From: a virus
Taxonomy: Duplodnaviria; Caudoviricetes
Direction: 5' to 3' (one strand)
DNA length: 64,000 bases
Virus record (IMG/VR): IMGVR_UViG_3300020048_000088
Location: 17,314 to 81,313 of that record
Position numbers and translations under genes: made by a program. Numbering within the stretch: the first letter of the stretch is position 1; every line of letters starts with the position of its first letter. The notes below the pieces were generated by a model that was not told where the DNA came from, did not search any database, and saw only the letters and a program-made list of their open reading frames with translations. This document shows, piece by piece, positions 6,288-7,239 of the stretch.

Positions 6288-6502
6288 GTTCGCGCTCCAG
6301 CGAGCGAGAACGCTTTTGCAGCTTCCCGGGTGGCGCAGCCGCAGGAGCGGGACTGTCCGGAGGCCATGGCCGCCTGCAGCACTTCACGCTTGGTGCCGCA
6401 GGCGCACTGGCAGCGCCACTTGGCGGGCTTGACGTCAGGGATTTTCTCGATGAGGGCCCAGCGCCCGTACCGGCAGCCCGGCTCAGGTTTGAGTGTCTTC
6501 AT
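6284..6502 (-). CDS. Stand-alone copy of the RYGRW..WRCQCACG..SCGC domain (homing endonuclease N-terminal module)
   Basis: 72 aa; same Cys pattern as the N-terminus of the adjacent HNH protein; no nuclease domain. Confidence 0.6.
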   Translation of the reverse strand: MKTLKPEPGCRYGRWALIEKIPDVKPAKWRCQCACGTKREVLQAAMASGQSRSCGCATREAAKAFSLAGART

Positions 6503-7239
6503 AGAGCCTCCACTCGGAGGATTTCGCGCCCGATGGCTTCGGGGATTTGCGGCACCACCGCATTGCCAATCTGGTGCAGTCGTTGGCCCCAGCTGCTCAT
6601 ACGTCCGTCCATCCGTGAGGCATTCCCATAAGCCGTTCGGCGAACATCGGGCTCAACTTCCCACTGTCCGTCACGATCGCGGAGAGGTAGAAATGGGAAA
6701 GCCAGTGACTGTGGCTCTTGGAACCCCTTGGGCCACAGCCCTTGAATTCGCTCGCGCGAACGGTGGGCAACGACCCAGACCCTGTCCCTTTGATGCTCGG
6801 CACCAAGGGCGCTTGCGGGAATGCAATCCCATCGAGCATGGTACCGGAGCGCAGCGAGGCCCCCGAGGACTTCTTCCAGTCCGCGAGAGCGAAGGGCTGA
6901 CACGTTTTCGATGATGACCCACGACGGCGAGCACTGCTCGATGAGTCGGAGGTATTCAAACCAGAGACCGGAGCGGCCGCCAGTGATTCCTGCGCCGGCA
7001 CCAGCAAGGCTGATGTCTTGGCAGGGGAAGCCGCCGCAGATGACGTCGGGATTGAATCCGAGGTGCTCTGGGATGAGCGTGGTGATGTCCTCGTGGATTG
7101 GGACTGTGGGGAAGTGCTTGTTGAGCACTGGGTGGCAGGTTCTGTCGATTTCGCAGAATGCCCGGGTTGAGAACCCCCCAGCTCGGGATAACCCAAGGGA
7201 GAAGTTCCCGACCCCTGAGAACAGGTCGAGTACATGCAT
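6499..7239 (-). CDS. dcm: C5 cytosine DNA methyltransferase, alpha polypeptide (motif IX absent)
   Basis: Motif I DLFSGVG, IV GFPCQ, VI ENV, VIII QRDR, X IGNAVVP; ATG 7239. Confidence 0.93.
   Translation of the reverse strand: MHVLDLFSGVGNFSLGLSRAGGFSTRAFCEIDRTCHPVLNKHFPTVPIHEDITTLIPEHLGFNPDVICGGFPCQDISLAGAGAGITGGRSGLWFEYLRLIEQCSPSWVIIENVSALRSRGLEEVLGGLAALRYHARWDCIPASALGAEHQRDRVWVVAHRSRERIQGLWPKGFQEPQSLAFPFLPLRDRDGQWEVEPDVRRTAYGNASRMDGRMSSWGQRLHQIGNAVVPQIPEAIGREILRVEAL
6597..7235 (-). CDS. Overlapping-frame beta polypeptide of the methyltransferase carrying motif IX
   Basis: Open 212-codon frame nested in dcm on the same strand, ending LPTVRASEFKG...GKLSPMFAERLMGMPHGWTDV (motif IX-like); ATG 4 nt after the alpha ATG (ATGCATG). 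Confidence 0.75.
   Translation of the reverse strand: MYSTCSQGSGTSPLGYPELGGSQPGHSAKSTEPATQCSTSTSPQSQSTRTSPRSSQSTSDSIPTSSAAASPAKTSALLVPAQESLAAAPVSGLNTSDSSSSARRRGSSSKTCQPFALADWKKSSGASLRSGTMLDGIAFPQAPLVPSIKGTGSGSLPTVRASEFKGCGPRGSKSHSHWLSHFYLSAIVTDSGKLSPMFAERLMGMPHGWTDV

Follow-up and report, generated by a model that had tools for sequence, protein, structure and literature searches.

The methyltransferase gene at positions 7239 to 6499 on the minus strand of the window (the whole 64,000-nucleotide stretch analysed here, which derives from an 81-kb complete phage record with terminal repeats) very probably specifies an M.EcoHK31I-type C5 DNA methyltransferase, a heterodimer for which one stretch of DNA is read in two frames. 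Frame 0 encodes the alpha chain (P0001; 741 bases, 246 residues, 27.3 kDa, pI 6.5), the catalytic large domain of a C5 DNA methyltransferase. A second open reading frame (ORF), here called beta (P0002), occupies the +1 frame of the same strand, as an earlier reading made from the letters alone (the sequence-only reading) had stated; in its maximal form it extends over 212 open codons from an ATG at 7235 to a TGA stop at 6597-6599 and would yield a basic protein (212 residues, 21.7 kDa, pI 9.5). Its C-terminal end reads ...LPTVRASEFKGCGPRGSKSH...GKLSPMFAERLMGMPHGWTDV before the stop, the ending being rendered in full as LPTVRASEFKGCGPRGSKSHSHWLSHFYLSAIVTDSGKLSPMFAERLMGMPHGWTDV. In the window gene, 639 of the 741 bases are dual-coded. 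In its published description (PMC2836561, PMC3404938), M.EcoHK31I (E. coli HK31, YGGCCR; Lee, Kam and Shaw 1995) is a heterodimeric C5 methyltransferase whose two chains must associate, with motifs I-VIII and X on alpha and motif IX on a beta chain that is encoded in another frame inside the alpha gene. By analogy with that enzyme, we infer that both phage chains would be translated, would assemble and would both be needed.

Selection on both reading frames

The analysis, run with scripts, covered 240 homologous loci drawn from collections of viral, metagenome and genome sequences. The +1 frame of these loci was open for a median of 220 codons, and the +2 frame contained about 11 stops. As a null for +1 stops, the synonymous codons of 156 genes were shuffled while protein and codon usage were kept. 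Over alpha codons 0-60 the number of +1 stops showed no depletion (307 observed, 319 expected). Between codon 60 and motif VIII, only 10 were found where 385 were expected, and from motif VIII to just past motif IX a single stop was observed against 189 expected; after motif IX there were 312, compared with an expectation of 220. For the combined stretch from alpha codon 60 to motif IX, the total was 11 stops versus approximately 574 expected. When the window gene was considered alone, 3.5 stops were expected and about 1% of the synonymous shuffles were stop-free in +1 as far as motif IX. Interruption of the second frame in close homologues, which would have spoken against a second gene, was seen in neither close nor distant ones. 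The reverse comparison used shuffles that were synonymous in the +1 frame and covered the DNA of the target-recognition domain (TRD) and motif IX family-wide; it gave 0 frame-0 stops against 317 expected, a zero that is partly built in because the gene set had been picked for full-length frame-0 matches. At loci outside that set, frame 0 was also open over 250-270 junk-like codons (L227 and the AT-rich L230).

The pattern of substitution followed the same boundaries. We calculated the mean nucleotide entropy at frame-0 codon positions 1/2/3 for 150 non-identical genes and obtained 0.48/0.23/1.56 for motif I, 0.25/0.08/1.17 for motif IV, 0.86/0.62/1.28 for motif VI and 0.75/0.44/1.15 for motifs VII-VIII. 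The corresponding values were 1.44/0.78/1.02 for the P-T-P segment of the +1 frame and 1.26/0.75/0.72 for its motif IX, and at motif X (0.74/0.47/1.53) the frame-0 pattern was again observed. The wobble position therefore shifts from frame 0 to frame +1 and back to frame 0 along the gene.

Protein identities between the window gene and L001, its nearest relative with compared DNA, were calculated for each frame. Frame 0 was the better conserved over codons 0-60 (57% versus 35% for frame +1), over motifs IV-VII (64% versus 39%), around motif VIII (76% versus 60%) and from motif X to the end (77% versus 27%), whereas the TRD/IX stretch was 46% identical in frame 0 and 66% identical in frame +1. 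A still closer relative (93% identical; one contig from public metagenome runs) spans 6400-7266 with 59 differences and 0 insertions or deletions (indels). In the sample of metagenome differences that was displayed (40 of 98), all those between alpha codons 74 and 149 fell at frame-0 position 3, which is position 2 of frame +1; all 7 between codons 153 and 179 fell at frame-0 position 1, which is position 3 of frame +1; and between codons 220 and 245, 9 of 11 fell at frame-0 position 3 and the other 2 at position 1. The frame switch thus operates in the recent evolution of this phage lineage, and the presence of the same switch in a relative without indels excludes an assembly artefact.

These data leave very little room for the explanations that only frame 0 is a gene, the open +1 frame with its motif IX-like end following as a by-product from composition or frame-0 constraints, or that the layout is an assembly artefact of two compensating indels; we consider these extremely unlikely. 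Synonymous shuffles predict hundreds of stops where almost none are observed, and the TRD/IX stretch is better conserved in +1 than in frame 0, with wobble at the +1 third position. It is true that the genome is 60% G+C, a composition at which long alternative ORFs are common, and that frame 0 dictates some of the apparent +1 conservation in motifs IV-VIII (FPCQDIS in frame 0 becomes SPAKTS in +1); the layout is, however, also present in the low-GC genomes of Bacillus phage yong1 and Lacticaseibacillus phage R9.1, and long chance ORFs do not occur in low-GC genomes. As to an artefact, contigs of relatives from other runs and studies are free of indels, and more than 200 loci from unrelated assemblies show the same two-frame layout. 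Two compensating sequencing errors were rejected on the basis of the layout in the homologous loci and of the indel-free 93% relative. Both frames are under selection, and neither chance nor assembly error accounts for them. It is the whole stretch between motifs VIII and X, not motif IX alone, that is selected in the +1 frame, and this corrects the sequence-only reading, which had correctly placed a motif IX-like segment at the end of the second frame. Over motifs IV-VIII (6777 to 7061, where frame +1 encodes the N-terminal half of beta), stop counts and identities show that the +1 frame is kept stop-free but that its sequence is little constrained.

Content of the two predicted chains

The alpha chain possesses motifs I (FSGVGN, residues 7-12), IV (GFPCQD, 70-75), VI (ENV, 111-113), VIII (QRDRVW, 150-155) and X (GNAVVP, 225-230), and it has no motif IX, in agreement with the motif content read from the letters and with the alpha chain of M.EcoHK31I. 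The Pfam DNA_methylase profile (PF00145) matched residues 1-166 only, corresponding to profile positions 1-168 of 324 (E 1e-41). Relatives of P0001 number in the thousands, and many of them (240-340 residues) cover it end to end. An AlphaFold2 (AF2) model of alpha (predicted template modelling score, pTM, 0.76) was of high confidence for residues 1-170 and 227-246, and Foldseek matched it to M.HaeIII (1dct; E 1.7e-14, TMq 0.73) and M.HhaI. Both the motifs and the Rossmann-like fold place alpha in the PF00145 large domain of C5 DNA methyltransferases. Residues 175-226 (6562 to 6717), which are the frame-0 reading of the beta TRD/IX DNA and are kept open, had a predicted local distance difference test score (pLDDT) of 32-46, versus 87-89 for the motif X helix. 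Motif X itself (6550 to 6567) is encoded downstream of the beta stop, and its residues G225, N226 and P230 are invariant. The AF2 and Foldseek results therefore depict alpha as a large domain, a linker and a motif X helix, and in the model the part that separates motifs VIII and X, as read in frame 0, has the character of an unstructured linker.

The +1 translation of the family can be summarised roughly as M..QLTLFA.DSPAKTSA...SSWKTSQ...FSETWPRSGMMRNG.AY.LPPL...SGLWPTP.A.D.KG...LNP.WVEWLMGFP.GWTDL, followed by a stop. Some of the conservation upstream in this translation is imposed by frame 0, as in the SPAKTS already mentioned. The first ~90 residues of beta (1-91) are unconserved, consist of 76% S/T/P/A/G/Q and are predicted to be disordered. 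By contrast with that part, nearly all positions of the core at residues 154-212 (6597 to 6776) are invariant among 14 relatives; this core includes a TRD-like segment, LPTVRASEFKGCGP (6729-6770), and a putative motif IX, LSPMFAERLMGMPHGWT (6606-6656). The identification of the latter is transitive. In P0138, a natural relative, the beta-type frame runs on in frame into motif X (...GFPEGWTEGSSRAQRLKQVGNSIVPQ...), and residues 138-187 match positions 273-322 of the PF00145 profile with an E value of 1.3e-7, above the curated cut-off. P0002 matched P0138 with an E value of 9e-36, with residues 189-211 aligned on P0138 residues 138-160. These two matches support the beta C-terminus as motif IX, which the second ORF thus carries, as in M.EcoHK31I. 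This ORF is nested entirely within the alpha gene, in a different frame of the same strand; in this respect the layout proposed from the letters stands. The PHROG family phrog_1008 ('DNA methyltransferase') was matched by beta homologues (E 1e-26) and by P0002 (E 4e-9). A search of the PDB with a profile of 98 beta sequences returned only motif IX of a plant DRM C5 methyltransferase, weakly (E 0.88). At E ≤ 1e-3 the beta profile matched 44,783 cluster representatives among 1.84 billion, and at the stricter threshold of E ≤ 1e-30 it matched 7,307; some of the weak matches may be ordinary motif IX.

Several observations weigh against the two-chain reading. Neither Pfam nor NCBIfam directly recognised the beta frame of the window or of five homologues. 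The AF2 model of beta alone was mostly disordered (pLDDT 58, pTM 0.23), and only the motif IX helix (196-203) exceeded 80. The beta start in the window has no convincing ribosome-binding site of its own, and the frame-0 openness was measured in a gene set chosen for full-length frame-0 matches, as described above. The poor fold of isolated beta fits a subunit that folds on its partner, and it is weak evidence either way.

We propose that the alpha chain would form the catalytic large domain with motifs I-VIII, which binds S-adenosylmethionine (AdoMet), would then be read through some 50 codons as an unstructured linker and would end in a motif X helix that packs back onto the fold. The last ~60 residues of beta would supply the small domain, consisting of a WPTP-type target-recognition segment and motif IX, and the N-terminal half of beta, which overprints alpha motifs IV-VIII, would be kept stop-free while evolving almost freely. 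Alpha and beta would assemble into an active enzyme that methylates a short target on the phage genome.

A single chain could in principle be produced by two programmed frameshifts, the first (+1) following motif VIII and the second (-1) following motif IX, which would restore the canonical order of motifs I-VIII, TRD, IX and X. The spliced product would resemble a canonical small C5 methyltransferase, and natural relatives with motifs IX and X in one frame do exist (P0138 and L195). Such a mechanism has no need for the +1 frame to be open for ~90 codons upstream of the shift site (10 stops versus 385 expected), for frame 0 to be open through the TRD/IX DNA (0 versus 317, subject to the choice of gene set noted above) or for +1-frame ATGs that have ribosome-binding sites. 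Neither junction has a conserved slippery site and the alternative frame is not limited to the downstream part, so the locus lacks the features of a programmed-frameshift gene; the position of the beta stop also varies among homologues, from 1 to ~25 codons after GWTD. In addition, M.EcoHK31I was shown to be two polypeptides (PMC2836561). We therefore judge the double frameshift to be very unlikely and favor the two-subunit enzyme.

The resemblance to M.EcoHK31I, as judged from its published description, extends beyond the distribution of motifs I-VIII and X on alpha and of motif IX on a nested beta. The beta chains are of similar size (~22-23 kDa, compared to 21.7 kDa for the window beta), their N-terminal part is dispensable or weakly constrained, and several beta starts are possible. 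Three differences were apparent. The published TRD is on alpha, whereas that of the window enzyme appears to belong to beta: from motif VIII to motif X, selection acts over the full length in the beta frame only, and the alpha reading of this segment is a disordered linker. The candidate beta start in the window is 4 nt after the alpha start, and the gene is an orphan in a phage replication module rather than part of a restriction-modification pair. When the window gene DNA was compared with E. coli genomes, no match was found at the DNA level. The M.EcoHK31I expression plasmids were named M38 and C23, the latter being the beta plasmid (PMC2836561, PMC3404938). M.AquI (Agmenellum quadruplicatum, CYCGRG) is another two-subunit C5 methyltransferase that is split within the variable region and has motif IX on its small chain (PMC3404938). 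Its beta chain carries both IX and X and its alpha chain ends in the variable region, whereas the window gene has motif X on alpha, with full nesting of the two genes; the relatives P0138 and L195, in which a single frame holds both IX and X, resemble AquI more closely. The monomeric enzymes M.HaeIII and M.HhaI (PDB 1dct, 1mht family) have the same motif order and catalytic residues (PCQ with Cys73, ENV and QxRxR), and the alpha model superposes on their large domain; they differ in that their TRD and motif IX are in the same chain and frame, whereas those of the window enzyme would be on a separate, overprinted product. Literature searches for a general description of the two-frame layout in phages found only M.EcoHK31I and M.AquI. 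The layout has been shown experimentally only for M.EcoHK31I, yet it is kept across a very large and mostly mis-annotated family.

The start of the beta chain

As the sequence-only reading had noted, the two starts in the window are interleaved as ATGCATG behind one leader (7233 to 7239, with the alpha ATG at 7239-7237 and the candidate beta ATG at 7235-7233). The leader, AATAACAATAAGAAGAAAGCA (7240 to 7262), is AT- and purine-rich, its purine-rich part being AAGAAGAAAG (7251-7242); it has a weak Shine-Dalgarno-like tract (duplex of about -2.4 kcal/mol) and is unpaired in the predicted fold. In the beta frame, the start candidates are ATG 7235, TTG 7196, TTG 7007, GTG 7001, TTG 6959 and ATG 6839, and ATG 7235 is the only ATG before beta codon 134. 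In 12 of 14 close relatives (45-87% identical), the protein called in the beta frame has as its first residue a Met homologous to 7235. Most of these proteins are 209-212 residues long, and called proteins of that length are 63-87% identical to beta, although starts set by gene callers are not evidence of initiation. L001 has the same start arrangement as the window. In most homologues, beta starts at alpha codons ~45-65, in the variable loop of alpha before motif IV, and has its own ribosome-binding site; Shine-Dalgarno pairing at the first beta-frame ATGs of homologues averaged -4.3 kcal/mol, versus -2.7 for background and -4.55 for alpha starts.

We give slightly better than even chances to the beta of this phage starting at ATG 7235 and sharing the leader of alpha. 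The dual initiation 4 nt apart that was proposed from the letters is thus only half supported: it fits this subclade, in that the ATG is the only early one and its Met is found in close relatives, and against it stand the early codons of the family, which are not depleted in stops, and the family's usual starts at codons 45-65.

The competing possibility, which we rate somewhat lower, is the same two-subunit enzyme with a beta that starts inside the gene, at TTG 7007, GTG 7001, TTG 6959 or ATG 6839 (the last giving an 80-residue beta), with the open +1 frame over alpha codons 1-60 being due to chance. The absence of stop depletion over the first 60 codons family-wide (307 versus 319), the usual beta starts at alpha codons 45-65 and the unconserved, S/T/P/A/G/Q-rich and predicted disordered residues 1-91 are consistent with an internal start, and a relative without the methyltransferase gene has ATGTATG in the same leader. 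An ATG homologous to the one at 6837-6839 (beta codon 134), or a tandem ATG-ATG, is kept in 117 of 156 relatives; it could be an alternative start that gives the 80-residue beta or could simply reflect conserved Met residues. M.EcoHK31I beta can do without its first 42 residues in vitro, and its initiation is also possible at the internal Met codons 17 and 26 (PMC2836561). Deletion of 65-70 residues abolishes M.EcoHK31I activity, however, and an 80-residue beta would lose the segment concerned, a mapping that is inferred rather than aligned. Moreover, a Shine-Dalgarno match is absent from all of the window's internal candidates, the beta frame lacks any ATG from codon 2 to codon 133, and the called betas of relatives begin at the homologous Met with a conserved length, which is in part a matter of start choice by gene callers.

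Returning to the start at ATG 7235, we tentatively suggest that the whole TRD is on the overprinted beta chain in this family and that beta initiation in this lineage has shifted to a position 4 nt past the alpha start, a combined proposal to which we assign somewhat less than even odds. If it is true, a single leader with a single ribosome-binding site would serve both frames, initiation choosing between two interleaved AUGs, and the synthesis of the two subunits would be coupled.

Genomic context, family distribution and significance

The gene upstream of the methyltransferase encodes a family A DNA polymerase that also has a 5'-3' exonuclease domain. Between its stop and the methyltransferase leader is a strong, terminator-like hairpin (7272 to 7315) of 18 bp that is followed by UUUCUG; the 136-nt stretch has a minimum free energy of -47.7 kcal/mol (z -3.97). 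This hairpin may be a terminator or a processing site. A simple terminator scan did not call it, and a simple promoter scan detected no promoter near the methyltransferase gene. Downstream on the same strand are a 72-residue Cys-rich ORF (6284-6502) and an HNH endonuclease gene (5769-6287; Pfam PF01844, E 3e-8). The ATG of the Cys-rich ORF overlaps the alpha stop (ATGA) and is preceded by GGAGG, an arrangement that suggests translational coupling. None of the neighboring genes examined adjoins the methyltransferase as a restriction endonuclease gene, which makes the earlier designation of an orphan phage methyltransferase reasonable.

The methyltransferase gene is accessory, because related phages precisely lack it. 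In a metagenome contig from a related phage, 6494 is joined to 7269 with 39 other letters between them and the whole alpha/beta gene is missing; loose ends in two further runs agree with its absence. In the replacement leader of this relative, the small ORF that lies downstream begins at the second ATG of the ATGTATG.

A beta ORF used as a tblastn query matched 136 phage records. The matches lay in the +1 frame of annotated methyltransferase coding sequences of Mycobacterium phages Che9d (gp80) and KBG (gp84), of the low-GC phages yong1 and R9.1 named above and of a Porphyromonas phage; for a Vibrio phage and Stenotrophomonas phage SOVA965, the annotators had chosen the beta frame instead. Among the phage matches examined, none was a canonical relative with the whole enzyme in one frame, SOVA965 and KBG also being two-frame.

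Variants of the layout were observed among the relatives. Frame 0 of L195 carries motifs IX and X and gives a Pfam match end to end, and the beta-type chain of P0138 carries both IX and X; these could be real variants or errors in metagenome-assembled genomes. In the 313-residue ORFs P0130 and P0133, an N-terminus with a helix-turn-helix and an HNH endonuclease runs in one frame into the beta frame, with the junction exactly at alpha motif IV (VDVIVGGFP, then ANLAKTS), which looks like an HNH element inserted in the methyltransferase gene of a relative. L077 and L230 have an HNH-like ORF in the +1 frame directly after the beta stop, within the alpha linker; frame 0 stays open across it, resulting in three genes on one stretch. 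In the longer members L071, L114, L227, L030 and L048, the beta frame contains W-P-T-P-x-A-x-D modules, two to six of them, and frame 0 is open over up to ~270 junk-like codons.

If both chains are made, the locus represents a long same-strand gene overlap that selection has maintained in phages whose hosts belong to the Actinobacteria, Firmicutes, Bacteroidetes, Cyanobacteria and Proteobacteria. Of the two genes, only one is nearly always recorded by annotation pipelines, as a short 'DNA cytosine methyltransferase', and the single annotated chain would probably be inactive on its own; predictions of phage methylation or anti-restriction made from that chain alone would then be incomplete. The layout would also assign DNA recognition to a small subunit of its own, which is relevant to changes of specificity in such enzymes and to their application in targeted methylation as naturally split methyltransferases. 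The window adds a well-supported member to this family, with an unusual candidate start arrangement.

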